From: Planctomycetes bacterium RIFCSPHIGHO2_12_FULL_52_36
GTDB lineage: Bacteria; Planctomycetota; Brocadiia; Brocadiales; Bathyanammoxibiaceae
Length of the DNA stretch: 25,840 nt
Direction of reading: 5' to 3'
Assembly: GCA_001828545.1 (NCBI GenBank)
Contig: MHYW01000136.1
Coordinates: forward strand, 1 to 25,840
Shown: positions 5,764-21,005 of the stretch, one piece after another
How the letters are laid out: the number at the start of each line of letters is the position of its first letter
Position numbering within the stretch: the stretch's first letter is position 1
Notes under the pieces: model-generated
Database searches by the model: none
What the model was told of the DNA's origin: nothing
The model's input: only the letters and a program-made list of their open reading frames with translations
Position numbers and translations under genes: made by a program

Positions 5764-7461
5764 TTATCGGACGGGGAAGAGGGGGAGTCGGGCGTATACC
5801 CTGCATATGGCATTGGCCAGCTTATCGGGGTCATGTCTCAAGAGGTCCTGTTTCTCCCACAGGACCCTGGGCGTCTCAAGGTCTTCTATCAGGTCAGTCT
5901 CAATTATCTTCACAAACAGATTATGGGCCTCCGGGTCAAGGCGGACCATCCTGGCCCCTTCACGCTCGTATTTCTCCAGTACATCTTTCTTGGGCATACA
6001 GTTGTTTGCCAGGACGTAGTCAAGGACGTCCTCCCCCAGGTGGACAATCAGTGCCCTTATATGGTCGGAGGGGGTGTAGCCGTCCGTCTGACCAGGCTGG
6101 GTGACTATGTTGCAGACGTATATCTTGGCGGCATGGGAGTTTTTGATAGCCTCTCGCAGTCCCTTTACCAGGATGTTGGGTATAACGCTTGTGTACAGGC
6201 TCCCCGGACCAAGGACGATTATGTCTGCATTAGAGACCTCCTCTAAGGCATCAGGCAGGGGTTCTACGTTGTTAGGCTTTAATAGTACCCTCTTGATGGG
6301 GGGTTTCCCTGGTTGTCGTACGTTGAATTCCCCTTCTACTATGGTACCGTCGGCCAGTTCTGCACATATATGGGTATCCTCCAGTGTGGAGGGGAGCACC
6401 TTACCGCTTATGGCCAGTATCTTGCTGGCCTTTTTAATGGCTAGTTCAAAACTCCCCGTCATATCCGTTAATGCGGTCATGAGTAGATTACCTAGGCTCA
6501 TCCCCTTGAGGGACCCCCTGTCAAAGCGGTACTGGAAGAGTTTGTAGAGGTCTTCCTGTTGTTCTTCCGTCTCAGAGAGGGCTACCAGGCAGTTCCTGGC
6601 GTCACCGGGCGGGAGCATGCCGTATTCTTCTCTTAACTGGCCAGAGCTCCTGCCTGAATCGGTAACGGTGACCAGGGCCGTGGGGTTTCTACTGAAGGTC
6701 TTTAGTCCCTGGAGCACCATCGGGAGACCTGTCCCTCCACCCACTGCCACTATTTTGAGCCTATCCGGGAATTTGCCCATGTTTATCAACTCAAGGATGG
6801 TGGGGAGGGAATACATCTTGTTTATCCTGTAGTCGGGTTTTTCACTCTCCTGTCGGGGAGGTTCCGATTTGTAGCGGCCGTGGAGCATCTGTACGGCGAA
6901 CGTGCCCATGTTTTTGGCCACCCGTATCTCGGCATCAATGCGGTCTCCTACTACCACAGCCTCCCCGGGCATGAGGTCATATTTCCTTAGTAGTCCCCTG
7001 TAACAGTCCTCCAGGAGCAGGCCCACCTCCTGGTCGTTAATGATTATCTGGTCAAAGAAGGGGGCAATGCCCAGGAGTTCTATCTTTTTTTCCTGCCTGG
7101 TATGGACCCCGGTGGTGACCAGGAGGAGTTTGTATTTCTCCAGCCTTAATTGTCTCAGGGTAGGGATTACGTCAGGGAAGGGCTGTACATTAGAGACCTC
7201 ACTGCTGTTATAGGCCTGAAGGGCGGCCTTCACCAGGCCCTGTCCCATACCATACATGCGGGCAATCTCGTCAAAGACCAGGGAAGAGGGCCCAAGTTTT
7301 TCTGCCACGGTCTTCTGGAGTTCGTAGGCTACCTCTTCGCTGACAGGGAGACCCTGTCCCACCATGGCCCTGGACGCCCGACGCCGAGAGGCCTCTACCA
7401 GTAGACCTGTGCAGTCAAAGAGTGTATCATCCAGGTCAAAGATTACTGCCCTTATCCGCAT
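5764..7461 (-). CDS. yvcK: Fusion: N-terminal HAD-IA hydrolase + C-terminal YvcK/GlmR (UPF0052, CofD-like) domain
   Basis: Residues ~1-225: IFDLDDTL, VTTG, VGDRIDAE. Residues ~232-565: KIVAVGGGTGL, VTVTDSGRSSG.LR, LPPGDARNCL, GMSLGNL, IVLGPGSLYTSVIPN, NIVTQPGQTDG, LRHDPDKLA. SD AAGGAG. Confidence 0.92.
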   Translation of the reverse strand: MRIRAVIFDLDDTLFDCTGLLVEASRRRASRAMVGQGLPVSEEVAYELQKTVAEKLGPSSLVFDEIARMYGMGQGLVKAALQAYNSSEVSNVQPFPDVIPTLRQLRLEKYKLLLVTTGVHTRQEKKIELLGIAPFFDQIIINDQEVGLLLEDCYRGLLRKYDLMPGEAVVVGDRIDAEIRVAKNMGTFAVQMLHGRYKSEPPRQESEKPDYRINKMYSLPTILELINMGKFPDRLKIVAVGGGTGLPMVLQGLKTFSRNPTALVTVTDSGRSSGQLREEYGMLPPGDARNCLVALSETEEQQEDLYKLFQYRFDRGSLKGMSLGNLLMTALTDMTGSFELAIKKASKILAISGKVLPSTLEDTHICAELADGTIVEGEFNVRQPGKPPIKRVLLKPNNVEPLPDALEEVSNADIIVLGPGSLYTSVIPNILVKGLREAIKNSHAAKIYVCNIVTQPGQTDGYTPSDHIRALIVHLGEDVLDYVLANNCMPKKDVLEKYEREGARMVRLDPEAHNLFVKIIETDLIEDLETPRVLWEKQDLLRHDPDKLANAICRVYARLPLFPVR

Positions 7462-7492
7462 AATCTCCTTTTCTCAGCCCGAAATTATCCCC

Positions 7493-7521
7493 AATTTAGA
7501 GTAAAAACATACCAAAGTCAA
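7493..7521 (-). promoter_or_regulatory. Putative sigma70 promoter for the HAD-yvcK gene
   Basis: Minus strand TTGACT-N17-TAAATT, about 30 nt upstream of the ATG at 7461. Confidence 0.5.
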
Positions 7522-7538
7522 CCTGCATAACAAAGTAA

Positions 7539-7565
7539 GTAGGGGCGGGGTCACCCCGCCCCTAC
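7539..7565. repeat. GTAG-type REP-like palindrome, copy 3
   Basis: gtaggggcggggt-c-accccgcccctac. Overlaps the DUF192 stop and is flanked by cctactg cctactg cttact. Confidence 0.85.
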
Positions 7566-8053
7566 TGCCTACTGCTTACTCTCTCAGGTGGTAGCTCCAC
7601 CTTGTCCCCCACCTTTACGTTGTGCCTCTCAAACCATCCCTCCAGCATCTCTAAGGCGTACCTCGCCTTTTCTTTAGAGTCATGACTACTAAGACTGAGT
7701 GGCTCCATGGACTCAATCTGGGTGATTGTGCCCTCAGTTGATATGAAGGCAATGGAAAGGGGTATATGGGTATTCTTCATCCAGAAGGTGAGATAATCCT
7801 CCTCTGGGAACACAAAGAGCATACCGTAGTCTTCGGGGAGCTGTCGCCTGTACATCAGTCCTAGACCACGTTCACTGGGTGTACGGGCCAATTCCACGGT
7901 AATCACCTTCCCAGCAACTTTTAACTGGTAAAGCTCCTTTCCCTCCGTTGTGGACCTGGTGTAATAAAAGGCCACAACCAATAGTATGAATAGAAGACAT
8001 ACAACTGCGTATGGTAATCTGCCCGAGGCGGATTTTCTGTCACTCCTGGACAT
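7562..8053 (-). CDS. DUF192 family protein, membrane-anchored
   Basis: N-terminal TM, VELARTPSERGLGLMYR, GMLFVF, FWMKNTHIPLSIAFI, YALEM..GWF. Confidence 0.92.
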   Translation of the reverse strand: MSRSDRKSASGRLPYAVVCLLFILLVVAFYYTRSTTEGKELYQLKVAGKVITVELARTPSERGLGLMYRRQLPEDYGMLFVFPEEDYLTFWMKNTHIPLSIAFISTEGTITQIESMEPLSLSSHDSKEKARYALEMLEGWFERHNVKVGDKVELPPERVSSRQ

Positions 8054-8684
8054 TGTCTTTCAGAAGCCCATTGCAACGTTTACAGAAGGTGTCCGGTTTC
8101 CTATCCGTATCCGGAAGACTATTAGAAAAGAACATGACGCAGTGGGGGTCGGGACAGTGTCTCATGCCCCAGACGTGGCCAAGCTCATGTACGGCCTCCT
8201 TGACCGTCCTCTCCATTAATAAGGTAGTATCTGCTGGTTTTCCGTAGAATTCCTGCCTGAGGCGGCAGAGGGATATGATAGCCATGTCTTTAGTCGGGAG
8301 GGCCTCCCCAAAGACAAAATTGAGGTTAGGGACAAAGAGGTCTACCTCCGTTACCGCCAGGAGTAGGGGCAGGGTTACCCTGCCCCTACCAATACGGGGT
8401 CTGGTCGTCTCCAGGCCCTGCAGGACCCTCGTGGAATTGTATTGGTTGCGCCCCTGGTCAAAGGCCGCCTTTGAAATCTCTACTGGTTCCCCTATCTCAG
8501 CGGCCACCCCTAACTTGTCTCTCAGGGACTGAGCCAGTTCCTTTAGAAGACCTTTCTCCACCTTACCTACAGGTACCAGGTACACTACCCTTGAATGTTG
8601 GGCCATGCAGGGGGTGTTAGTAGCGATGGCCAGGAATAGAAGGGACAAGACGTCCGCGGAGAAGGGGGAGCGGAGTAATCTCAT
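8040..8684 (-). CDS. amzA: Archaemetzincin (peptidase M54) zinc metalloprotease
   Basis: RNQYNS, VTEVDLFVPNLNFVFGEA, EAVHELGHVWGMRHC...CVMFFSNS...FCKRC. ATGA overlap with the nfi stop; an alternative start at MAQHS is possible. Confidence 0.92.
   Translation of the reverse strand: MRLLRSPFSADVLSLLFLAIATNTPCMAQHSRVVYLVPVGKVEKGLLKELAQSLRDKLGVAAEIGEPVEISKAAFDQGRNQYNSTRVLQGLETTRPRIGRGRVTLPLLLAVTEVDLFVPNLNFVFGEALPTKDMAIISLCRLRQEFYGKPADTTLLMERTVKEAVHELGHVWGMRHCPDPHCVMFFSNSLPDTDRKPDTFCKRCNGLLKDNVQE
8363..8389. repeat. GTAG-type REP-like palindrome, copy 4, inside the archaemetzincin CDS
   Basis: gtaggggcagggt-t-accctgcccctac is the exact reverse complement of copy 1 (661-687). It is 27 nt and read in frame as part of GRGRVTLPLL. 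Confidence 0.85.
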
Positions 8685-9379
8685 TTTATCGTGTATTTAC
8701 CCTCGGAAACGGACCTCAATTGACTGACCAGGTTATGGGCCTGACGCAGGGGTTCCGGGAGTCTGTAGCCCCTGCAACTCCTGAGGACTATCTTTATGGA
8801 AGAGGGCAAATTGATTCTGTGCCCGGGAGAGACGAAGACTGGCTTCACCCTGCTCCTAGTCCTTACTGCCGCCCCTACCCGCTTGCCTTTGTAGAGGAGG
8901 TAAGAATAGGAGCCTGCCTCAACGCCCACAGGGTCGTACCCCCCCACTAGTACAGACTTGGCACAGCCCACGGAGGGCCTATCCAGCAGGAGTCCCATAT
9001 GGCTGGCCAGGCCGAGGCCCCTGGGATGGGCAATACCCTGCCCGTCAAATAGCAGCACATCGGGTTTGGTCTTAAGGAGACTGAACGCCTTCAGGAGGGC
9101 TGGTGCCTCTCTAAAACTAAGGAGACCAGGGATGTATGGGAAACTGGCCTTACGCACGGCACTGGCCTTATCCAGGGGCTTCATGCCCTTAAAGTCAAAG
9201 ACTACTACCCCAGCGTATACCTGGTTGGTCCGCTTACTATAAGCCACGTCTGCCCCTGCTATGGTACGGGGCAAGGTGGTGCTACCGTCCGTGAGGATGA
9301 GGGATTTCCTCAGCCTATCCTGTATGTCTACCGCCTCCTGGTAGCCTACCCGCCACGGATGGAGTCTTTTAAATCTCAT
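8681..9379 (-). CDS. nfi: Endonuclease V (deoxyinosine 3' endonuclease)
   Basis: IAGADVAY, FPYIPGLLSFREAP, DGQGIAHPRGLGLASH, SVGCAKS, PVFVSPGH, YRLPEPLRQAH. Confidence 0.96.
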   Translation of the reverse strand: MRFKRLHPWRVGYQEAVDIQDRLRKSLILTDGSTTLPRTIAGADVAYSKRTNQVYAGVVVFDFKGMKPLDKASAVRKASFPYIPGLLSFREAPALLKAFSLLKTKPDVLLFDGQGIAHPRGLGLASHMGLLLDRPSVGCAKSVLVGGYDPVGVEAGSYSYLLYKGKRVGAAVRTRSRVKPVFVSPGHRINLPSSIKIVLRSCRGYRLPEPLRQAHNLVSQLRSVSEGKYTIK

Positions 9380-10115
9380 CCCCTGCCTGGAATTGTAGGG
9401 ACAGGGCTTTAGCCCTGTCCGAAATGGGCAGACCTGGAGAAACGGACAGACCTAGAGGTCTGTCCCTACTGCTGCTGTCTTTAGGTCCCTCCCTGGAGGC
9501 CAGGTACCTCAAGCTCTTCATTACCTTCTTGTAAGGGAAATTCTTCCCGGGGCAGGCCGTATCGTGGACGTCCTTATGCAAAACAATAGAGGACCGGGGG
9601 ATATCGTACCTTTGCGATAAGTAACTGATAATGTTTATCAAGGACTTAATCTGTCGCCTGGTGGGTTTGTCCCCATTCTCAAAGTTCCCCACAAGGCAGA
9701 TACCTATACCCATGCGGTTGTACCGGGAGTCGCCGGCATGGGCACCGGAGAGCTGCTCCTTCCAGCGTTTACCTACCTCTATCTCACCGTCTCTGGAATC
9801 AGTCCCATTTCCGATGACGAAATGGTAGCCGAGACCATTTCCCCACCCCCTTACCTCCCGGTGGAAGGTGTCAAAACGGGCCGCTGAGCCTTCATGGGTG
9901 GCACTGTGGTGAAGCACTATGTATCGCCAGTGGTTCTCAGGGGCCTCAGGTTTACATAGTGTTTCCAGATTGGGTGCCTTTTTCTTTAGCAACATCAAGG
10001 GCAGGCTTACGGCGAGGGCAAGGACAACCAGTGCCGGAATGAGGAGGAAAAGGGGTATCTTCCATACGTAGAAGGAAAATGCAAGGCTATTCTTAGTCTT
10101 CCAGAACTGCTTCAT
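9369..10115 (-). CDS. N-acetylmuramoyl-L-alanine amidase (Amidase_2/PGRP-like), N-terminal TM anchor
   Basis: WRYIVLHHSAT, GLGYHFVIGNG, GAHAG, IGICLVGNFE, LHKDVHDTACPG (Zn ligands His/His/Cys). Hydrophobic residues ~15-42. Confidence 0.92.
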   Translation of the reverse strand: MKQFWKTKNSLAFSFYVWKIPLFLLIPALVVLALAVSLPLMLLKKKAPNLETLCKPEAPENHWRYIVLHHSATHEGSAARFDTFHREVRGWGNGLGYHFVIGNGTDSRDGEIEVGKRWKEQLSGAHAGDSRYNRMGIGICLVGNFENGDKPTRRQIKSLINIISYLSQRYDIPRSSIVLHKDVHDTACPGKNFPYKKVMKSLRYLASREGPKDSSSRDRPLGLSVSPGLPISDRAKALSLQFQAGDEI

Positions 10116-10145
10116 TAAGAGGGACTATTTCTTGCCACCTGCAAA

Positions 10146-10174
10146 ATTATATAGAGGCAGGAAAGGACTGTCAA
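10146..10174 (-). promoter_or_regulatory. Sigma70 promoter (perfect consensus) for the amidase-nfi-amzA-DUF192 operon
   Basis: Minus strand TTGACA-gtcctttcctgcctcta(17)-TATAAT. Confidence 0.8.
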
Positions 10175-10196
10175 TGGGAAAAGAGGCCAGGGTTGT

Positions 10197-10225
10197 GTAG
10201 GGGCGACCCGGCGGGTCGCCCCTAC
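10197..10225. repeat. GTAG-type REP-like palindrome, copy 5
   Basis: gtaggggcgacccg-g-cgggtcgcccctac, perfect 14-bp arms, lying between the divergent promoters. Confidence 0.85.
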
Positions 10226-10246
10226 TAAACGGGCAAGCAATTATCC

Positions 10247-10274
10247 TTGACAGCCCTCCAGTTGCTAGTACAAT
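10247..10274 (+). promoter_or_regulatory. Sigma70 promoter for the precursor-rSAM-kinase-NTase operon
   Basis: TTGACA-N16-TACAAT, about 50 nt upstream of the GTG at 10324. Confidence 0.65.
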
Positions 10275-10323
10275 AACCTTAATTATTTATGTATGTATTT
10301 GGTCCGATAGAAGGAGGTCGCCA

Positions 10324-10503
10324 GTGTCCAAAGAACCTACCGATAACCTTGAAGAACAGAGGCAAAAGACCCGCCGCAGGCTCCTGAAGTTAGGTGCATA
10401 CAGCATCCCGATAATCACAACTCTGGTTGCGAGCCGTGAGGCCCTTGCTGTATGTGGCCCTGTACTGTGCCCGCCCAAACTCAAGCTAGCGTCAAGGTCC
10501 TGA
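10324..10503 (+). CDS. Putative RiPP precursor peptide with Tat-like leader (59 aa; not in the ORF track)
   Basis: SD AAGGAGG (10311-10317) 6 nt before GTG. Translation MSKEPTDNLEEQRQKTRRRLLKLGAYSIPIITTLVASREALAVCGPVLCPPKLKLASRS: TRRRLLK twin-Arg motif, hydrophobic stretch, ALA cleavage motif. Directly upstream of an RRE-bearing rSAM. Confidence 0.82.
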   Translation: MSKEPTDNLEEQRQKTRRRLLKLGAYSIPIITTLVASREALAVCGPVLCPPKLKLASRS

Positions 10504-10579
10504 GTCGTAGCCATGAGCCGAAGTCCTGGGGCCGCCTCAGGTGGATGAAGGGGTTACGAAGGAGCGGTGATAGATTACT

Positions 10580-12196
10580 ATGGTTAATGAGATTGACCCC
10601 GCAAAAGGCCACATCTTCCTGGTAAGAGGACCTGTCAATTCTGCCTTGTACGACCTAAAGAAGAGGGAGATCTATTCCGTAAACCCACTGGTGGCTAGCG
10701 CGCTGGGGGATGGAGCGGAAGGGGTTCAGTCTATGCCTTTAGCAGGTCTACAGGTAGATTCGTTCCGATCACTGCAGGCCTCTAAACCTTCGTCCATTAG
10801 TGGAGAGGCCCTCCAGGTGCTCAGGAGTTACTTGGCCATACATCCTGCACTTGGTCAGTATGCGGTGACAGGTGGTAAGGGGTTTCGGGAGGGAGGCGGC
10901 AGTAGCCCCTTTTCCTACCAAAAAGTCATAGGGGAGTATTGCAATACGTCCCTACGTAGACTTAATTGTATATGGCTGGAACTCACCCAAAGTTGCAACC
11001 TCTCCTGTGCCCACTGTTATGCGGAGGCGGGGATGAGTCGCCCGAAGGAGCTTTCCCTGGGACAGTGGAAGGAGATACTTGAGGAGGGTGCGCAACTGGG
11101 CGCAAAGGAGGTCCAGTTGACGGGAGGTGAACCCACCCTATGCCCCTGGCTCACTGAGCTTGTTGAACACGCAAAGTCTTGCCAGTACAGAGAGATAGAG
11201 GTCTTTACCAATGCCACCCGCCTTGAGGAAGGGTTGTTGCGGAAGTTGGCTACCTTAGGGGTGAAGGTGGCATTATCCATTTACTCCTACGACCCCGAGA
11301 CGCACGATGGGATTACCAGGAGTCCTGGGAGCTTTGGGCGGACAGTAGAGGGTATAAAGTCACTCCTGGACTACCAGATACCTGTGAGGGCAAACGTAAC
11401 CCTTATGAAGGAAAACCTCTCCCACTTTAAAGACACCAGAGAGTTCTTGAAGGGATTGGGTTTGAAGGAGATAGGGTACGATTATGTACGGCCTACTGGG
11501 AGGGGGAGGGCAGAGTCAACCCGTCTGGATGTAGACGTGGCGAAGAAGGCGCCGGTGCTGTACATGCCATCCTCGCCCGAGGGCATACGTGGATTTTGTG
11601 AGGATAAGTCTGCCTGGATTACCTGCTGGAGGGGTGAGATACTCATAGCCAGTGATGGGGCGGCGTACCCATGCATCTTTACCAGGAAGATGCCAGTAGG
11701 TAAATTCCCCGAGATGCGGCTGGAAGAGATTATACAAGGCCAAACCGTCCAAAGGCTGTGGCAGATAACCCTGGATGAGGTGGAGACCTGTAAGGACTGT
11801 GAACTCCGCTACGGGTGTTTTAACTGCAGTGCCCTGGCACTGACTACCACTGGTAAACTGCTGGCCAAGAACCCACACTGTCAGTATAACCCCTACACCG
11901 GGCTTATGGAGGGGCATGGAGAAAAAGGGATGAAAGAAAGGCCAAAGACACGGATAGACCTCATCAATGAGACTGTGGAAGATGAGGTAGTTATTTATGA
12001 CCCAAAGAACCATAATGTACACCACCTGAATCCTATGGCAGGCATTATCTGGGAGTTATTAGATGGAAATCATACCCCCAAGGAGATAGCGGAGGAGGTC
12101 ATCAGTGTACTGGAGACCGACCCCGTTCAAGTGGAAAGGGACGTTACCAAGACCATTGAGGAGTTCCAGAGGAAAGGCCTTCTGGAAGAGGCGTAG
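10580..12196 (+). CDS. Radical SAM/SPASM peptide maturase with C-terminal PqqD/RRE domain
   Basis: CNLSCAHC (CxxxCxxC), LTGGEP, FTNA. SPASM CWRG...DGAAYPC...CKDCELRYGCFNC...PHC. Residues 451-538 are PqqD-like (EDEVVIYDP....HHLNPMAGIIWELLDG..TPKEIA...DV..TIEEFQRKGLL). Confidence 0.93.
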   Translation: MVNEIDPAKGHIFLVRGPVNSALYDLKKREIYSVNPLVASALGDGAEGVQSMPLAGLQVDSFRSLQASKPSSISGEALQVLRSYLAIHPALGQYAVTGGKGFREGGGSSPFSYQKVIGEYCNTSLRRLNCIWLELTQSCNLSCAHCYAEAGMSRPKELSLGQWKEILEEGAQLGAKEVQLTGGEPTLCPWLTELVEHAKSCQYREIEVFTNATRLEEGLLRKLATLGVKVALSIYSYDPETHDGITRSPGSFGRTVEGIKSLLDYQIPVRANVTLMKENLSHFKDTREFLKGLGLKEIGYDYVRPTGRGRAESTRLDVDVAKKAPVLYMPSSPEGIRGFCEDKSAWITCWRGEILIASDGAAYPCIFTRKMPVGKFPEMRLEEIIQGQTVQRLWQITLDEVETCKDCELRYGCFNCSALALTTTGKLLAKNPHCQYNPYTGLMEGHGEKGMKERPKTRIDLINETVEDEVVIYDPKNHNVHHLNPMAGIIWELLDGNHTPKEIAEEVISVLETDPVQVERDVTKTIEEFQRKGLLEEA

Positions 12197-12198
12197 AG

Positions 12199-13062
12199 GT
12201 GAAGGCGGCGACCCCAGCACTATCCACACTCAATATAAAGGTACTCTCCCTCCCGATAGAGATAACCACAAACCACGAGTCTTTCCGAAGAGAATTCTGT
12301 GAGCTTACCTCAGCCCTGGCTACCCCTGCAAATGGAGAACCACCAGTGGTAAGGTTCCAGGTGATGAAGAAGAAGAGATGTTTGCAGATAGAGCAGGAGG
12401 GTCGCATTATTTACCGTTTAACGAGAGACTATCATTTATGCCCCTTCCTGATGGACGAGATAAGGGCAAGCTGTTATGGACACGTGAAGGATTACCTGCT
12501 AGTCCACGCCGGTGCCGTAGTAAAAAATGGTAGGGCTATCCTCTTACCAGGGAAGTCAGAGAGCGGAAAGACCACCCTTACGCTGGGGCTTACGAACCAC
12601 GGTTATAAATATCTTACTGATGAGGTGAGCGCTATCCACCATGAGACTACGGAGGTGGTGCCATTCCAGAGGCCCATTTACGTGTGGCGTTGGTCCAGGC
12701 CCCTCCGTCAAGAGGTCAGTAAGAGTTTCAAGACCTATCGTTACCGTGGCGAAGGGCAGAGGTGGCAATACATTGTGCCCCAGGATGGTGCAGTAATCCC
12801 CGGGGATGCCCGGTGTAAGGTGGATTGGATTATATTCCCCAAATATGTCCCTAAGAGTAAGGTAGTATTGAAACCCATTGGCGGCGCCAGGGCAGCCGTG
12901 GCCCTACTGCAAAGGTGTTGGAATGCCCAGCTCTTTCCAGATAGGGGTCTAAAGATACTCACAGGGCTTGTACGAAGGGCGCGGTGTTATACACTGGAGA
13001 TGGGAGACCTGGAAGAGGCCTGCAAATTGATAGAGTCAACATGTAGGGGCGAATCCGCCTGA
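12199..13062 (+). CDS. HPr-kinase-related serine kinase (PadeK/ThcoK-like P-loop kinase)
   Basis: LVHAGAV, Walker A GKSESGKTTL, GYKYLTDE, VPFQRPI. Lacks the N-terminal domain of true HprK. Confidence 0.85.
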   Translation: MKAATPALSTLNIKVLSLPIEITTNHESFRREFCELTSALATPANGEPPVVRFQVMKKKRCLQIEQEGRIIYRLTRDYHLCPFLMDEIRASCYGHVKDYLLVHAGAVVKNGRAILLPGKSESGKTTLTLGLTNHGYKYLTDEVSAIHHETTEVVPFQRPIYVWRWSRPLRQEVSKSFKTYRYRGEGQRWQYIVPQDGAVIPGDARCKVDWIIFPKYVPKSKVVLKPIGGARAAVALLQRCWNAQLFPDRGLKILTGLVRRARCYTLEMGDLEEACKLIESTCRGESA

Positions 13063-13262
13063 GACGGACTGAACTCCACATCCAGCGACACAGTCGCTGG
13101 ACTCCATATATTTGGAGTCCATTGACTGTGTCAATGGACAAAATCAGACACCTAACCGCCCACTACTTCCTATCCAGCGATCCGCCTGAGGCGGAGAGGC
13201 AATCTAGTCATGGTTGAGCGGGATTGCTTCAGTAGTGTAGGGTGCGTCTTAACGCACCTTAC
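13043..13262. repeat. Composite palindromic element between kinase and nucleotidyltransferase
   Basis: Half-REP gtaggggcgaa (13043); tccgcctgag[a/g]cgga at 13054-13068 and 13181-13195; nested TCCA..TGGA hairpins at 13081-13139; REP-like gtagggtgcgt-ctta-acgcaccttac at 13237-13262. Confidence 0.7.
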
Positions 13263-13290
13263 TACTCGGCCCACCTTAGACAGACAACCT

Positions 13291-14496
13291 ATGTCTATGA
13301 ACAATATCCAAAGAGAACCTGTCTCAGAATATCAGAGTGAGCTTTTGCAACTCGTATCTCTATGCTCAGCCTCCAGGGTACGTCAAGTTGCAAATCCGCC
13401 ATCTTTCAGGCGGGACGCACCCTACGATTGGAGAGGCATAATAAAGATGGCCAGGGGGGAGGGGCTATCTCTCTCGTTATACAAAAACTTGAAGGCCAGT
13501 AACGGCCTCCTGCCCCAGGAGTATCTGGAGGAGTTGAGGCAAGAATATTTCTTAACCCTGGCACAGAATAAGTATTATTTTAGAGAGTTGGTGCGATGTC
13601 TTAAGGCAATGGACGTGCCGGTCATACTGTTAAAGGGGGCGGCCCTGCTTCCTGCCGCCTATAATGACTTAGGGGCGAGGCCCCTTGGGGATTTTGACAT
13701 CTTAATCCACCGCAGAGACCTGGATAAGGTAACAGGACGCTTAGGGGACTTGGGGTATAAATCTCATGGGGTGTATGGTCCCCATATTAATACTGTTTCT
13801 TTTATAAGAGACGAGGAGACGGTCCTGCCCCTGGAGGTTCACTGGCATATTGAAAATGCCATGTTCCCAAATTTTGAGATGTTCAAGATAGAGAGGATGT
13901 GGCAGGCCGCCATTACTGTAAAGATAGAGGGCTATGAGGGACTTATCTTTGCCCCGCATCACCAACTCCTCCACCTCACCGTACATGCCCTGAGGCACCA
14001 CTACGATAGGCTCATCCTCCTGTGGGACATACACCAGGTAATTAACCACTACGGGGGGCGGTTGAACTGGAAGGAATTGGTGCAGGAGGCACTGGAGTTC
14101 CGTCTCTCCAGACCTTTATTCTACGGGCTTTATCTAACCAAACTCTTAATGCATACAGACGTACCACAACATGTTCTGGATAGACTCAGGCCCTTAAGCC
14201 TTGGTCTGGAGGAAAAAGCCTTCGTCTATTTTATCAATAGGGGTATCCGCATACCCGGTTTACAATACCTGGTATATTTTCCAATGAACCAGGGCGTGAT
14301 AAATAAGATAAGATTTCTCTGGCGGGCCTTCTTCCCCCCCAGGGATATACTAGCGGAGATGGAGGCCCTTGATGGTTCTGAGATAGGGATAGTCCATTAC
14401 CTGAGGTGCATGAGTTGGAGGATGCAGTGTGCATGGAGGCTTATTGGGGGGGGGTTATGGTTTTCTGGCAAAGGCCAGGAGGGAGGGGCTGATTAA
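13291..14496 (+). CDS. Uncharacterised nucleotidyltransferase (NTP_transf_5-like)
   Basis: VILLKGAAL, YNDLGARPLGDFDILI, LEVHWHI, LLHLTVHALRH, RLILLWDI. Start placed at ATG 13291 (or 13297) because the ORF-track extension from 13210 runs through repeat DNA. Confidence 0.88.
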   Translation: MSMNNIQREPVSEYQSELLQLVSLCSASRVRQVANPPSFRRDAPYDWRGIIKMARGEGLSLSLYKNLKASNGLLPQEYLEELRQEYFLTLAQNKYYFRELVRCLKAMDVPVILLKGAALLPAAYNDLGARPLGDFDILIHRRDLDKVTGRLGDLGYKSHGVYGPHINTVSFIRDEETVLPLEVHWHIENAMFPNFEMFKIERMWQAAITVKIEGYEGLIFAPHHQLLHLTVHALRHHYDRLILLWDIHQVINHYGGRLNWKELVQEALEFRLSRPLFYGLYLTKLLMHTDVPQHVLDRLRPLSLGLEEKAFVYFINRGIRIPGLQYLVYFPMNQGVINKIRFLWRAFFPPRDILAEMEALDGSEIGIVHYLRCMSWRMQCAWRLIGGGLWFSGKGQEGGAD

Positions 14497-15351
14497 CAGG
14501 TTTCCAATAGATAGATAATAGACTGCCTGGGCCAGGGGGTAGGCGGTGTTTCGCAACAGTACCTCGGCAGATTTCCCGGCAAAGTTTATAAGGGCGGGAA
14601 CGTTTGGATCAAGGGTGGAATTCTCTACCCGTATGTCCACAAAACCTGCCTCCTTGAGGAACATCCTCAGTGTCCCTGGAGAAAACATATACACGTGGAA
14701 GACGGTGGGGGCCGTCACCCTGAGACCCTCCGGGATGATGGAATTGGTGAGGTCAAAAAGGCGCTGGAGGTAGAGGTGGAAGTGGAGGTTGGACACCCTT
14801 AAGGCAATAAGCCCGCCCTTCTTTAGTACCCTAAAGACTTCCCTTAAGTCTCCCCATGGGTCGTACGCCTGGTCAAGGACGTTCCAGGAAGTAGCCACGC
14901 CAAATGAATTCTCAGGCAGTTTGGCATCCCTTAGTTCCCCCCTGTGGACCTCGAGCCTCAGGGTATCTCTGGCAAATTGGACGGCGGTGGAGGAGACGTC
15001 GGTCCCCACTCCCTGCCACCCCCTCTTCCTGGCCAGGTCAAGGAAGTAGCCCTTGCCACAGCCTACGTCCAGGAGACTACCGTCTGGGATGGTGGATTCA
15101 ATACGGGAGAGCATCTTTTCAAACAGTGGGTATCTGTACTCCCTCCAGAGTGCCTCCTCTTCCGGTTTAAAATACTCAAGGTCGTAAAGCCTCCTCTCCC
15201 TCTCCAGGGTAGGTTTGGGGTTTATATAAGCAAGGCCGCATTTCTTACATCGTACCAGCCAGGAGGTCTCGTGGATTGGAGAGATGACCACCTGGTTAAG
15301 GGCAACGTAGTCCTTGGAGTTACAAAAGTTACAAGGGGTCTTGACTAGCAT
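14455..15351 (-). CDS. Class I SAM-dependent methyltransferase with N-terminal Zn ribbon (paralog 2)
   Basis: CNFC...CKKCGLAYINP, LLDVGCGKGYF, WNVLDQAYDP, HVYMFS. Confidence 0.9.
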   Translation of the reverse strand: MLVKTPCNFCNSKDYVALNQVVISPIHETSWLVRCKKCGLAYINPKPTLERERRLYDLEYFKPEEEALWREYRYPLFEKMLSRIESTIPDGSLLDVGCGKGYFLDLARKRGWQGVGTDVSSTAVQFARDTLRLEVHRGELRDAKLPENSFGVATSWNVLDQAYDPWGDLREVFRVLKKGGLIALRVSNLHFHLYLQRLFDLTNSIIPEGLRVTAPTVFHVYMFSPGTLRMFLKEAGFVDIRVENSTLDPNVPALINFAGKSAEVLLRNTAYPLAQAVYYLSIGNLLISPSLLAFARKP

Positions 15352-15384
15352 CTAGTGCCTGCGAAAGAGGGATATCTCCAGAGG

Positions 15385-16275
15385 TCATGGTTTTTTTGCA
15401 AAAATCATTAATGAGGGTCCCATTACCAGAGTACGTAATGAGAGGTAGTAGCAAGACTCTACCAGGAGATAGGTAAGCTTCCGTAAAAATTGTTCCGTAA
15501 CCCTTCCCACCACTGCCGAGGCGGTCCCTGGGACAAGGGCAGAATTCTCCATCCGTATATCCACAAACCCCGCCTTCTCCAACCACTTCTTTATGCACCG
15601 TGAGGAGAACATGTGTGGGTGGAAACCCACAAGGGGTGACAGGTTAAGTCTCCCCACTGAAATGACACCCAGGACGTTAGAGAGGTGGTAAAGAAAGAGA
15701 TGGAAATCAAGATTAAGTACCCTCAGCCCCAGAAGCCCACCCCTTTTAAGGATTCTAAATATCTCCTGGAGGTCTGCCCAGGGGTCGTACATGTGGTCAA
15801 GTACGTTCCAGGCAGTAATCACCTCAAAGGATTCGGATTCCAGATGGGCATCCTTGAGTTCACCCGCAAAGGCCTCTAACCCTAAAGAGTTCCTGGCAAA
15901 AAGGACGGCCTCCTGGGAAGGGTCCACCCCGTAGACCTTCCATCCTCTCTTCCTGGCCATCTCCAGAAAATAACCCTTACCGCACCCCACGTCTAACAAC
16001 CTGCCAGTCTGAAAAGAGTCCCCTATACGCTGAAAGGCCTGCTCAAAATAGGATAGTCTGTTTTCATGCCAGTGCCTCTCCTCCCCTATCTTATAATACT
16101 CATGGGCATAAAACTCCTTCTCTTCCTCTACCGGGCACATGGGGTTCATGTAGACCAGCCCACAGCCAGTACATCTCACCAGGAAAGAAGGTTCGGGGGT
16201 AAGGGGGGTCTTTATGCTAGCCAGGACGACATGGTCTTCCCTATCACAAAAATTGCATCTGGCCCTGATAAGCAT
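15385..16275 (-). CDS. Class I SAM-dependent methyltransferase with N-terminal Zn ribbon (paralog 1)
   Basis: CNFC...CTGCGLVYMNP, LLDVGCGKGYF, WNVLDHMYDP, HPHMFS. Confidence 0.9.
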   Translation of the reverse strand: MLIRARCNFCDREDHVVLASIKTPLTPEPSFLVRCTGCGLVYMNPMCPVEEEKEFYAHEYYKIGEERHWHENRLSYFEQAFQRIGDSFQTGRLLDVGCGKGYFLEMARKRGWKVYGVDPSQEAVLFARNSLGLEAFAGELKDAHLESESFEVITAWNVLDHMYDPWADLQEIFRILKRGGLLGLRVLNLDFHLFLYHLSNVLGVISVGRLNLSPLVGFHPHMFSSRCIKKWLEKAGFVDIRMENSALVPGTASAVVGRVTEQFLRKLTYLLVESCYYLSLRTLVMGPSLMIFAKKP

Positions 16276-16282
16276 AGATTCT

Positions 16283-17494
16283 TTAGACCCCTCCTGAAAA
16301 TCCCTTCTCGCTCAGGAGCTTCAGATATAACTGTACCATCTGCTCTACGGTTTGGGAGGGGGAGTCAAATAGTTCTTGAACCCTTTTACCCGCCTTGACA
16401 GTTAGTCTCTTTCTTAGTTTTTCATCCCTTCTCAAGCGGAGTATGCAATGGGCCATAGCCTCTGTATCTCTTACTGGGGCAAGCAGTCCAGTCTCTCCGT
16501 CTGCCACCATCTCCGGTATACCGTCTACGGCGGTCGCAACTACGGGTACGCCACAGACCATGGCCTCCAGTATTGAACGGGGGCTAGCATCCCATAAAGA
16601 GGGGTTGAAGGATATGTCAAGGATGCGGGTAATCTCAGGTATGTCCTTCCTGTAACCTGTCATTACCACCCTATCCTCAATGCCCATGCTGGTTACTCTT
16701 TGTTGAATCGCCTCTTTTAGCTCTCCCTCCCCCACTATTAAAAGAAAGGCGTCTGGAATCTCCTTATGCACCTTCTGGAAGGCCTCCAGGGCCTCAAAGT
16801 GTCCCTTTTGGGGGCTTAGCCTGGCTATAATACCTATCACGAAAGAGTCTTCGGGCAGGCCGAGTTCCTGCCTCTTTTTTGCTACGTTGACCTGTACCTG
16901 CCTAAATCTGTCCGGGTTAATGCCACTGTGGATTACAATGTACTTTTCTTTTGGGGCAATTCTGTAGTTCAGATAATCATTGGCCTCACTTTGACACATG
17001 GCAATAATTTTATCGGCCCAGAGGGCCGCTGGCCTTTCTATTAAAGCGAAAAACCAACGTTTAGGTAGGCCAAAGAACGTAGGGCGAAAGATACTCCCGT
17101 GGGGTGTGTGAACTATTACGGGGACATGGGCAAGCCTTGCGGCTAATCGGCCCAGTATCCCTGCCTTTGAGGTATGGGTATGGACTATTTGATAGCCGCC
17201 ATCCTTAATAAGCCTGAACAGTCTAAGAAAGGCCCATAAATCATATAAAGGGCTGACCTCTCTTCTGAACTCTGGGATGGGATGAAAAGGGATACCCATT
17301 TTACGGACCGTTTTGGCCGTCCTTGGGTCTGGGGCACCAGCCAACTCCACCTGAAACCCCCTATCCTTCAGCCCACTGCATAGGTTCAGGGCAACCTCCA
17401 CCGCACCCCCAGGGGTGAGTCGGGTTATAACATGAAGCACCCTGACAGGCGTCTTCCTGTCAGGTTTTTTACTACGTGGACTTCCCTCTGCCAC
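16283..17494 (-). CDS. Glycosyltransferase family 4
   Basis: VLHVITRLTPGG, IVHTHTSKAGILGR, HSGINP, IIARLSPQKGH, ILEAMVCGVPVVATAVDGIPE. Confidence 0.93.
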   Translation of the reverse strand: MAEGSPRSKKPDRKTPVRVLHVITRLTPGGAVEVALNLCSGLKDRGFQVELAGAPDPRTAKTVRKMGIPFHPIPEFRREVSPLYDLWAFLRLFRLIKDGGYQIVHTHTSKAGILGRLAARLAHVPVIVHTPHGSIFRPTFFGLPKRWFFALIERPAALWADKIIAMCQSEANDYLNYRIAPKEKYIVIHSGINPDRFRQVQVNVAKKRQELGLPEDSFVIGIIARLSPQKGHFEALEAFQKVHKEIPDAFLLIVGEGELKEAIQQRVTSMGIEDRVVMTGYRKDIPEITRILDISFNPSLWDASPRSILEAMVCGVPVVATAVDGIPEMVADGETGLLAPVRDTEAMAHCILRLRRDEKLRKRLTVKAGKRVQELFDSPSQTVEQMVQLYLKLLSEKGFSGGV

Positions 17495-19982: not shown

Positions 19983-21005
19983 TCAAGCTCGTCTTCTAAT
20001 ATTCATTAAAACATCCATTTCGTATCCACACGTGCAGCCAGGGCATTCTTTATTAAACCCCTTTACCCTTTTCTCTATGTAGTCTTGACTCCGAAAGATA
20101 TCAAAGAGGGTATTGTTATTCAGCCTACCTGCAGGGGACATCGCCCAACATCCGGGGTAAACATTACCCAAACTATCAATAAAAAGCCCCATCAAGGTAC
20201 GGGCACAGTAATAATGCGGCAGTCTGCTATCCTGTAAGAGCGCTGGGATTTCCCTGAATCCCTTTATGCTGCCAGCAATGTGCTCAGGATATTTCCTTTT
20301 CAGTTCAATCAACAAATTCGTTGCTCCCCTCATTTCTTCAACGCTTGGCCCAATTGAACTGTCTATACCTTGGGAAAAATACAAATTATTGTGAAAAATA
20401 TTGAATTCCACGGCAATATCCAAATCTTTTGCATATTTCACAATAGCCTCAATTTCACCAATGTTTCTCTTGATAATCGTGAATGCAATACCTACTGGCA
20501 GCTCAATCCGTCTCATATGTTTAATTATACTATCCAATTTTTTCCAACTCCCTTTAATACCTACGATACTGTCATGAGTTTCCTCTTTCCCGTGCATAGA
20601 AATAGTTACACGGCCAACGGATTCTTTCCTAAAGAGGCCCACTTGCTCCTCGGTCAAAAGAGACCCATTCGTTGCTATAGACACTCGCAACCCCAATGAT
20701 TTCGCATAGGAAACAAGGGAATCTATATCTTTCCTTAAAAGTGGTTCGCCGCCTGTAAAACGTACCGAAAATCCACCCATTTCTTTAAAATCCCTTAAAA
20801 CATACTGCCATTGTTGTAGCGTCAATTCGCTTCTCTTATCCCCCATCTGGTAGTGATTGCACGTGATACAATGATAATTACACCTGTCGGTTAATTTAAT
20901 GGATAATGTGGGTGGAAAGAAATTAGTAGGGCTCTTTCTAATGTTCAAGGCGTAAAGACCGAGAAGTCCCACCACGAGTTTTTTAAGCTTCCACCTGATT
21001 ACCAT
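19983..21005 (-). CDS. Radical SAM protein with short SPASM/twitch domain (probable sugar-modifying enzyme)
   Basis: CNYHCITC, FTGGEPLL, IATNGSLL, YCAR..LFIDSLGNVYPGCW...CPGC. AT-rich coding sequence. Confidence 0.88.
   Translation of the reverse strand: MVIRWKLKKLVVGLLGLYALNIRKSPTNFFPPTLSIKLTDRCNYHCITCNHYQMGDKRSELTLQQWQYVLRDFKEMGGFSVRFTGGEPLLRKDIDSLVSYAKSLGLRVSIATNGSLLTEEQVGLFRKESVGRVTISMHGKEETHDSIVGIKGSWKKLDSIIKHMRRIELPVGIAFTIIKRNIGEIEAIVKYAKDLDIAVEFNIFHNNLYFSQGIDSSIGPSVEEMRGATNLLIELKRKYPEHIAGSIKGFREIPALLQDSRLPHYYCARTLMGLFIDSLGNVYPGCWAMSPAGRLNNNTLFDIFRSQDYIEKRVKGFNKECPGCTCGYEMDVLMNIRRRA

Follow-up and report, generated by a model that had tools for sequence, protein, structure and literature searches.

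A putative radical-SAM, signal-leader variant of the RRE/kinase/nucleotidyltransferase phosphopeptide pathways in a planctomycete genome

The four-gene operon and its precursor family

The window analysed here is a 25,840-nt stretch of contig MHYW01000136.1 (assembly GCA_001828545.1) from Planctomycetes bacterium RIFCSPHIGHO2_12_FULL_52_36. Its subject is a unit of four genes encoding a small precursor peptide, a radical S-adenosylmethionine (rSAM)/SPASM maturase fused to a PqqD-type recognition element (RRE) for peptides made on the ribosome and modified after translation (RiPPs), an HprK-related kinase and an NTP_transf_5 nucleotidyltransferase (NTase). The initial annotation had described these genes as co-directional, and all four were confirmed on the plus strand; they are a real and conserved peptide-maturation operon, with the following features.

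10247..10274, + strand: sigma-70-like promoter, TTGACA-16-TACAAT, 11/12 consensus matches
10310-10317, + strand: strong Shine-Dalgarno sequence GAAGGAGG, 6 nt 5' of the precursor GTG
10324..10503, + strand: precursor peptide, 59 aa, GTG start
10580..12196, + strand: rSAM/SPASM/PqqD fusion maturase, 538 aa (PF04055 9e-27, PF13186 5e-7, PF05402 7e-14)
12199..13062, + strand: HprK-related, phosphoenolpyruvate (PEP) carboxykinase-fold putative peptide kinase, 287 aa, no Pfam match
13210..14496, + strand: NTP_transf_5 nucleotidyltransferase, longest open reading frame (ORF) (PF14907 3e-47)

The kinase gene begins 2 nt past the maturase stop codon. The NTase probably starts at the ATG at position 13291, because the first 27 codons of its longest ORF span a palindrome resembling repetitive extragenic palindromic (REP) elements and its homologues are ~40 aa shorter.

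The window precursor divides into a leader (residues 1-42), with the elements EEQxQK, T16-R-R-R-L-L-K22, Y26-S-I-P-I-I31 and A40-L-A42, and a core of 17 aa (residues 43-59), with two Cys-x-Pro units (C44 and C49), a C-terminal Ser59 and no acidic residue. A small ORF was found upstream of the maturase in every locus with enough flanking sequence, and the 12 rSAM-linked orthologous loci combined a conserved leader with a hypervariable core of 15-47 aa. The leader consensus was EEQxQK, then (T/A/V)-R-R-x-L-L-K-L-G-x-Y-(S/T)-(I/V/A)-P-x-(I/V), then a small-x-small element (for example A-L-A or A-H-A), and the motif [YW]xxPx[LVIFA] was present in 17/17 full-length precursors. Over all cores, 77 of 82 cysteines lay in a C-x-P context; for the group with leaders of the twin-arginine translocation (Tat) type the count was 32/33, whereas 20,000 shuffles gave 5.6 on average and 13 at most. 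The last residue of the Tat-type precursors was Ser in 13 of 15 and Thr in 2 of 15, and all 12 Tat-type Cys-x-Pro cores were free of acidic residues. Fusions at a greater distance (35-48% identity), found in Nitrospirota, in Latescibacterota and on metagenome contigs, had cores of C-x-P repeats with up to 27 units, behind a leader with K-Y-(V/I)-K-P-x-(V/I)-E that differs from the consensus yet retains YxxPx(V/I). The 146-aa precursor at L109:4064-4504 contains 29 Cys, 27 of them in Cys-x-Pro, and is largely a period-3 C-x-P repeat.

The full rSAM-SPASM-PqqD architecture was found in ~50 members of a large protein collection, at 33-81% identity. The fusion was followed by an HprK-like gene (~290 aa) in 13/13 loci with available flank, and an NTP_transf_5 gene lay at most 5 kb away in 11 of the 13 loci with flank past the kinase, the query used having failed to detect one at L018 and L019. 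The initial annotation had held that the proposal would fall if these genes did not co-occur in other genomes, and they do. The fusion-kinase loci comprised the window, L009, L010, L011 (in genome G002), L015 (in G021), L098, L100, L105-L110, L018 and L019. Scanning for loci with an rSAM alignment was swamped by generic rSAM motifs and missed close orthologues (it yielded L018, L019, L042, L046, L074 and L094), and leader-based scans gave 7 loci only. Among related genomes the kinase was patchy, occurring in 14 of 41, with the close subtype confined to the genus of the window and one Scalinduaceae genome.

A genome of the same genus, G003, is syntenic with the window, with endonuclease V (96% identical) and an amidase on one side and the NTase (62% identity), two methyltransferases (85-87%) and a GT4 glycosyltransferase (70%) on the other. 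Between these flanks it encodes a stand-alone 85-aa PqqD protein, which clears the TIGR04353 cut-off (39.4 vs 35), and a kinase 46% identical to that of the window, without an rSAM enzyme; the precursor-like ORF there shares the leader and the final Ser with the window precursor but is Cys-free. The same combination of stand-alone PqqD, no rSAM and precursors that keep the leader and the terminal residue but lack Cys was found at L101, which has two tandem precursors, and at L104. Having the same locus within one genus with or without the rSAM, and with or without Cys, provides matched natural controls. The comparison points to a three-way association, in which the leader tracks the RRE, the terminal Ser is tied to the kinase and NTase, and Cys-x-Pro accompanies this rSAM clade.

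Since the leader, RRE, kinase and NTase occur at the same locus in sister genomes without the rSAM and without Cys, the rSAM is an added module on a Tat-leader/RRE/kinase/NTase system of the NCBIfam 'HPr-rel-A' type. It had initially been suggested that lasso-type tailoring was placed on an rSAM-cyclised scaffold, and the comparison reverses that order, with the rSAM joining a resident leader/RRE/kinase/NTase system. The window kinase is nearer to those of distant rSAM-type loci (60-72% identical) than to its same-genus counterpart in G003, which suggests a swap in which the precursor, rSAM and kinase genes entered a resident locus together, as one cassette.

It is very unlikely that the small ORF encodes a secreted protein or lipoprotein that happens to lie beside polysaccharide-modifying enzymes and has no relation to them. 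This reading can appeal to a linkage that rests on no experiment and to the faintly lipobox-like A-L-A-V-C of the window, but the correlations of leader with RRE, of Cys-x-Pro with rSAM and of terminal Ser with kinase hold across loci. A lipoprotein was dropped in its own right, since the distance of the Cys from A-x-A is not fixed, V, I, T or Q occupies position -1 and no lipobox fits. It is very probable that the precursor and the enzymes form a real substrate-enzyme set.

The wider rule that any rSAM in such cassettes goes with Cys was ruled out by a second cassette, with a different rSAM/SPASM protein and a Cys-free core, which confines the Cys link to the PqqD-fused rSAM clade. This second Tat-leader cassette lies in the same genome as the window (contig C137, ~6777-11514, - strand) and also in G003 (L012:3754-8661). 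Its 55-aa precursor carries R-R-R-L-L-K-L, W-I-P-P-A-I and A-W-A ahead of a Cys-free 10-aa core with a final Gly, and its other genes encode a 332-aa rSAM/SPASM protein, a stand-alone PqqD, an HprK-like protein, an NTP_transf_5 protein and a Wza-like exporter. Between C137 and G003 the precursors are 100% and the enzymes 81-93% identical.

Two further loci bear on the family. At L013:9835-10707 (- strand) of G003, the Cys-free precursor stands at the 3' end of a YkgJ-like CxxCxxCC (PF03692) frame, to which it may be fused unless it is a gene of its own, read from an internal Met. Next comes a beta-propeller repeat protein of 447 aa, and genes of the FG-GAP/beta-propeller type also adjoin the cassette at L009, L106 and L107. 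L042:4224-8151, from a Dehalococcoidales metagenome-assembled genome, encodes a PqqD, an rSAM, a lasso B2-type peptidase (NF033537, 50 bits vs a cut-off of 33), an NTP_transf_5 protein and an HprK-rel-B-like kinase, with no cyclase within the stretch examined. Here too an rSAM is combined with parts of the lasso leader-processing machinery.

Maturase, kinase and nucleotidyltransferase

The maturase has a degenerate RRE-like N-terminus (residues ~1-125), a CxxxCxxC motif (C139, C143 and C146), SPASM cysteines at positions 349, 365, 404, 407, 413, 416 and 434, and a C-terminal PqqD-type RRE (~469-535). All seven SPASM cysteines and the CxxxCxxC motif are invariant. The N-terminal residues match a degenerate RRE (hhalign 79%, E 1.6e-5) and also align to the N-terminal region of CteB, while among solved structures the C-terminal RRE is closest to those of lasso B1 proteins, TbiB1 and TfuB1. 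Lasso RREs and those of the linear polyphosphorylated peptides (LPPs) bind a [Y/W]xxPx[L/V/I/F/A] leader motif (PMC13381572). Prediction of a complex between maturase residues 446-538 and the precursor scored 0.59, as compared with 0.05 for the best control, with contacts on precursor residues 19-37. The mark used for this score was reached by 51/78 solved complexes and 2/108 mismatched pairs, and values up to 0.60 are graded 'weak support'; the predicted complex is to be taken as a likeness and not as proof, since solved lasso B1-leader complexes already exist.

The nearest solved enzyme to the maturase was SkfB, both by profile (9e-35) and by fold, with PqqE, CteB, SuiB and anSME more distant (anSME at 6e-14 by profile and at ranks 6-9 by fold). 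SkfB is a thioether-forming enzyme. The rSAM probably acts on the cysteines of the Cys-x-Pro units, and by analogy with SkfB a thioether is the leading guess for its product, at even odds. A Cys-Asp/Glu thioether of the PapB/QhpD type (ranthionine) was ruled out, there being no acidic residue in the Tat-type cores. This clade of rSAM/SPASM enzymes would then combine a sharp Cys-x-Pro target context with the absence of an acidic acceptor in Tat-type cores, so that its chemistry may differ from the known Cys-Asp/Glu thioethers.

C-x-P is also the core of the sulfatase motif C/S-x-P-x-R that anSME recognises, and the maturase could work in the manner of anSME, converting the Cys of C-x-P to formylglycine and yielding an aldehyde peptide with no thioether rings. 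As is the case for sulfatases, modification would take place in the cytoplasm on a substrate that carries a signal peptide; the cores are rich in Lys, and anSME is among the relatives of the maturase. We consider this outcome quite unlikely, as Arg occurs at +4 in just two C-x-P units of the Tat-type cores, SkfB is a much better match than anSME and no anSME family model appears in the best 25 NCBIfam matches.

The best NCBIfam match of the kinase was TIGR04352, 'HprK-related kinase A' (113 bits vs a cut-off of 200), and its AlphaFold model (pLDDT 91) has the PEP-carboxykinase/HprK fold. The motif reads H103...G118-x4-G123-K124-T125...D141-E142, in which 15 homologues show conservation of H103, G123, K124, D141 and E142, the first four of these being invariant. 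Its spacing is the same as in BsfK (H148, G163, G166, G168, K169, S170, D186 and D187), with Glu at the G166 position; the residues of the motif H...G..G.GK[ST]...DD were shown to matter in BsfK, and in the Bsf system the kinase is accelerated by the RRE (PMC10368454). A search of a library of 1.8 billion representatives returned 2,102 relatives at E<=1e-10 and only 4 at <=1e-30, so that the window kinase is a small clade within a large family.

Kinases of the paeninodin type phosphorylate the C-terminal Ser of their precursor, and the pseudomycoidin NTase attaches a hexose to the resulting phosphate (PMC8498205). A kinase/NTase pair of the paeninodin/pseudomycoidin kind, as the initial annotation had described it, is present in the window together with a C-terminal Ser. 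By analogy, it is rather likely that the kinase phosphorylates that Ser. In the NTase the G...DxD residues G143, D161 and D163 are invariant, and the same analogy would have the enzyme act on the phosphate, which we put forward tentatively, at somewhat less than even odds.

Export, the lasso question and the surrounding glycan locus

The window leader has T-R-R-R-L-L-K, 14 uncharged residues and A-L-A, and a design of the S/T-R-R-x-F-L-K type is conserved in all leaders, which share T-R-R-x-L-L-K, an uncharged stretch and (A/V/I)-x-(A/G). The twin-arginine-like motif and the A-L-A thus bear out the Tat-like leader that the initial annotation had described. When the genome was scanned with a strict N-terminal pattern, 12 of 7,073 ORFs fitted, several of the others being large proteins with classic S/T-R-R-x-F-L-K N-termini, and TatC is encoded on contig C6. 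Export through Tat with release by signal peptidase I is, on these sequence features, about as likely to be right as wrong; it would explain why no dedicated protease or exporter stands at the locus. None was found in the ~12 Tat-type loci, and neither a SipW-like SpI peptidase nor an MsbA-like exporter was found among window ORFs of at least 110 aa or among the genes of orthologous loci. One sequence may thus serve economically as RiPP leader and general-secretion signal, and our literature search found no case of a twin-arginine-type RiPP leader or of a dual leader/secretion signal.

The leader might instead serve only to bind the RRE, an unlinked protease removing it and the product remaining in the cell or leaving through an unlinked transporter. 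Its hydrophobic stretch coincides with YxxPxI, and the Tat-signal models TIGR01409 (NCBIfam, E<=1) and PF10518 (Pfam, E<=10) matched no precursor, these searches giving just faint UCR_Fe-S_N matches on two Cys-free relatives. In other phyla, moreover, related systems rely on peptidase domains of the S24/S26 type and on exporters of the ABC-2 or MsbA kind. We nevertheless regard this as the minority reading, and a fairly unlikely one, since R-R, L-L-K-L-G and small-x-small are invariant or near-invariant although RRE binding needs only YxxP, since the Tat-type loci lack a protease or exporter, and since PqqD proteins in related loci bear twin-arginine-like N-termini of their own. Such extra PqqD-domain proteins occur in the distant Cys-x-Pro loci L110 (846-1289) and L019 (4319-4753), which hints at Tat 'hitch-hiking' of RRE-bound peptides.

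The claim that this is a RiPP-like unit without lasso enzymes was upheld. No match to the Pfam families of the lasso cyclase, the transglutaminase-like peptidase or ABC transporters was found among window ORFs of at least 110 aa. The assembly amounts to 1.5 Mb and is 77% complete, which bounds every whole-genome negative; PF13471, the lasso B/B2 peptidase, was not found in it. Its sole asparagine-synthase-like (PF00733) gene, on contig C137, is of the XrtA/PEP-CTERM amidotransferase/AsnB type and scored 232 against a cut-off of 525 with the lasso cyclase model. None of the 12 Tat-type Cys-x-Pro cores has the Asp/Glu at position 7-9 that defines a lasso core, and no lasso genes were found in the orthologous loci. 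A lasso cluster was accordingly dropped as a description of the locus. That the operon is a lasso tailoring set whose cyclase and leader peptidase act from elsewhere in the genome, which the initial annotation had also allowed for, is largely refuted. The RRE is nearest to lasso B1, kinase and NTase are typical of paeninodin-type clusters and part of the genome is missing, but the PF13471 search, the amidotransferase type of the one candidate cyclase, the lack of an Asp/Glu for a macrolactam and the orthologous loci all speak against it and leave it a minute residual chance.

In the pathway that we propose, the PqqD-type RRE at the C-terminus of the maturase would hold the precursor via Y-x-x-P-x-I, and the maturase would alter the core Cys in the Cys-x-Pro units, most likely by a thioether crosslink of the sactipeptide/ranthipeptide kind. 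The kinase would phosphorylate the terminal Ser, NTP_transf_5 would put a sugar or nucleotide-derived group on the peptide phosphate, and the modified peptide would leave by Tat and be released by signal peptidase I at A-x-A. We assign this whole course a probability of roughly 0.6.

A number of points weigh against it. The loci compared (about 15) are mutually related, and the counts given above overstate their independence. In the distant C-x-P systems the final residue is not Ser. The kinase, the RRE and the rSAM all fall under the cut-offs of their NCBIfam families. The maturase model (pLDDT 62.9) is poor beyond the core, and given this modest quality the active site was not interpreted from the whole-maturase model. 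The missing Asp/Glu acceptor excludes the PapB/QhpD-type chemistry. In addition, LppK (PMC13381572) and BsfK (PMC10368454) target a core Ser3 and not the C-terminus, and LppN was inactive upon heterologous expression (PMC13381572), which makes the role of the NTase the weakest link. The silence of the Tat-signal models counts likewise, as does the fact that the hydrophobic stretch is the RRE-binding motif as well, so that the signal-like look could partly be a by-product. Gene content, conservation, motif-enzyme correlations and intact catalytic residues were observed directly, and from these we infer the Cys modification (a thioether or another), the phosphoserine, its decoration and Tat export.

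On its downstream side the operon meets genes of the opposite strand, which, together with the upstream promoter, are as follows.

10174-10146: amidase-operon promoter, 12/12 match, divergent from the peptide-operon promoter
14455..17494, - strand: convergent neighbours of the cassette (total span), recurring next to it in other genomes
14455-15351 and 15385-16275, - strand: two paralogous Zn-ribbon/Methyltransf_23 methyltransferases
16283-17494, - strand: GT4 glycosyltransferase

The tandem methyltransferases share ~50% identity and both begin with a Cys4 zinc ribbon; their genes (14455-16275) have 42 nt in common with the 3' end of the NTase ORF, and orthologues adjoin the cassette in G003, L009, L011 and L108. 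The two methyltransferases and the GT4 are possible accessory genes of the cassette. Elsewhere the window is occupied by housekeeping genes to one side and, to the other, by a large minus-strand glycan locus with GT4, GT2, epimerase, cytidylyltransferase and methyltransferase genes and a second rSAM/SPASM protein. The latter (340 aa, 19983-21005, - strand) lies beside the cytidylyltransferase and GT2/GT4 genes with no peptide nearby, and its substrate may be a sugar. REP-like palindromes, GTAGGGGC...GCCCCTAC, are repeated in the window at 661-688, 7539-7565, 8362-8389, 10199-10226 and 13237-13262; the copy at 8362-8389, within an M54 peptidase ORF (8040-8684), matches the reverse complement of that at 661-688 exactly, and a degenerate copy falls within the first codons of the longest NTase ORF.

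Polysaccharide genes (GT4, Methyltransf_23, Glycos_transf_4, WbqC, PIG-L, Wza and Wzc) surround the cassette, which lies within polysaccharide loci in every genome examined. The peptide could accordingly be a carrier or cap for the glycan of the locus, with the phosphoserine as the attachment on which the NTase, the GT4 and the methyltransferases build. GT4 and methyltransferase are kept, at 46-50% identity, at a distant planctomycete locus; LPP and paeninodin clusters likewise lie inside capsule loci (PMC13381572), and the pseudomycoidin NTase attaches hexose to a phosphate (PMC8498205). Adjacency is no proof of function, however, and the glycan genes form a separate convergent operon on the opposite strand, L010 has the cassette without GT4 and methyltransferase, and no precedent was found, so that we hold the carrier role to be improbable. 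A more specific form of it, in which Tat-type leader, terminal phosphoserine and NTase make up a general export system for a peptide phosphodiester-linked to the locus glycan as a primed or capped surface polysaccharide, the rSAM installing a crosslink not seen before, for example Cys-Pro, is a long shot. If true, the long-orphan 'HPr-rel-A' systems of exopolysaccharide loci would gain a substrate and a role, and the Cys-Pro-type crosslink would stiffen the peptide end.

Comparison with known systems

Our literature search found no paper joining HPr-kinase-like proteins or an HprK-like kinase with rSAM RiPPs. The RRE-Finder and rSAM-compendium papers contained none of the kinase or NTase terms looked for, and searches on NTP_transf_5/PF14907 and on SynChlorMet/HPr-rel-A returned nothing relevant. 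With the sactipeptide and ranthipeptide maturases (SkfB, CteB and PapB) the window enzyme shares rSAM, SPASM and RRE as well as Cys-bearing cores; it differs in that its main RRE is C-terminal and of the lasso-B1 type, in the lack of an acidic acceptor, in the presence of the kinase and NTase and in the signal-like leader. The SynChlorMet cassette (TIGR04248-04251) likewise contains an HprK-like protein (ScmC), a PqqD (ScmD) and rSAM/SPASM proteins (ScmE and ScmF). ScmD is the best NCBIfam match of the window RRE (46.9 vs a cut-off of 100) and ScmE is among the rSAM matches (95.5 vs 400), but the cassette has two rSAM proteins and a separate PqqD as compared with one fused enzyme in the window, which in addition has an NTase.

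The 'HPr-rel-A system' consists of the TIGR04352 kinase and the TIGR04353 PqqD, defined by comparative genomics and linked to exopolysaccharides, and we know of no substrate assigned to it. It provides the best NCBIfam match of the window kinase and shares the polysaccharide context, and the sister-genome PqqD passes its family cut-off; the window proteins fall below (kinase 113 vs 200, RRE 28.9 vs 35), with the PqqD fused to an rSAM/SPASM enzyme. A precursor family, with a Tat-like leader and a terminal Ser, can now be proposed for this system. More generally, the kinase/PqqD/NTase cassettes of exopolysaccharide loci gain a testable substrate family, with YxxP in a Tat-like leader and a terminal Ser/Thr.

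The nearest characterised relatives are the LPPs and the phosphorylated lasso peptides, the LPPs being closest. The phosphorylated lasso systems, namely paeninodin (PadeK), pseudomycoidin (PsmK/PsmN) and the Bradymonas BsfK/BsfB1 pair (PMC8498205, PMC10368454), share the kinase motif, the NTase family, the RRE and YxxP, and in paeninodin and pseudomycoidin, too, the target on the precursor is a C-terminal Ser. The window differs from them in lacking the B2 peptidase, the cyclase and a core Asp/Glu, and in having the rSAM.

LPPs are linear polyphosphorylated peptides made by lppA-K-B-S-D-N of Paenibacillus alginolyticus (Popov et al., Nat Commun 2026, PMC13381572); they are encoded in capsule loci, have a YxxP leader and are polyphosphorylated at core Ser3 (PMC13381572). 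Both systems comprise an RRE, an HprK-like kinase and an NTP-transferase, with a YxxPx(hydrophobic) leader and no lasso cyclase, in a polysaccharide locus. The initial annotation knew of no characterised system with this combination. That does not hold for RRE, kinase and NTase without lasso enzymes, which the LPPs already represent (PMC13381572), whereas an rSAM fusion that acts on Cys-x-Pro cores, together with a leader of the signal-peptide type, is undescribed. The window belongs to Planctomycetota and not Bacillota, has a Cys-x-Pro core and carries its RRE fused to the rSAM/SPASM enzyme, while the LPP RRE is discrete, as it is in G003, L101 and L104. The LPP target Ser3 faces a Gly at core position 3 of the window (if cleavage follows A-x-A), where the Ser is C-terminal. 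LPPs have a SipW-like SpI peptidase and an MsbA-like exporter, in place of which the window has a Tat-like leader with A-x-A, and the signal-like leader may replace both. The description that fits the operon best is a variant of the RRE/kinase/NTase phosphopeptide pathways with a radical-SAM enzyme and a signal-type leader; it is not a lasso cluster.

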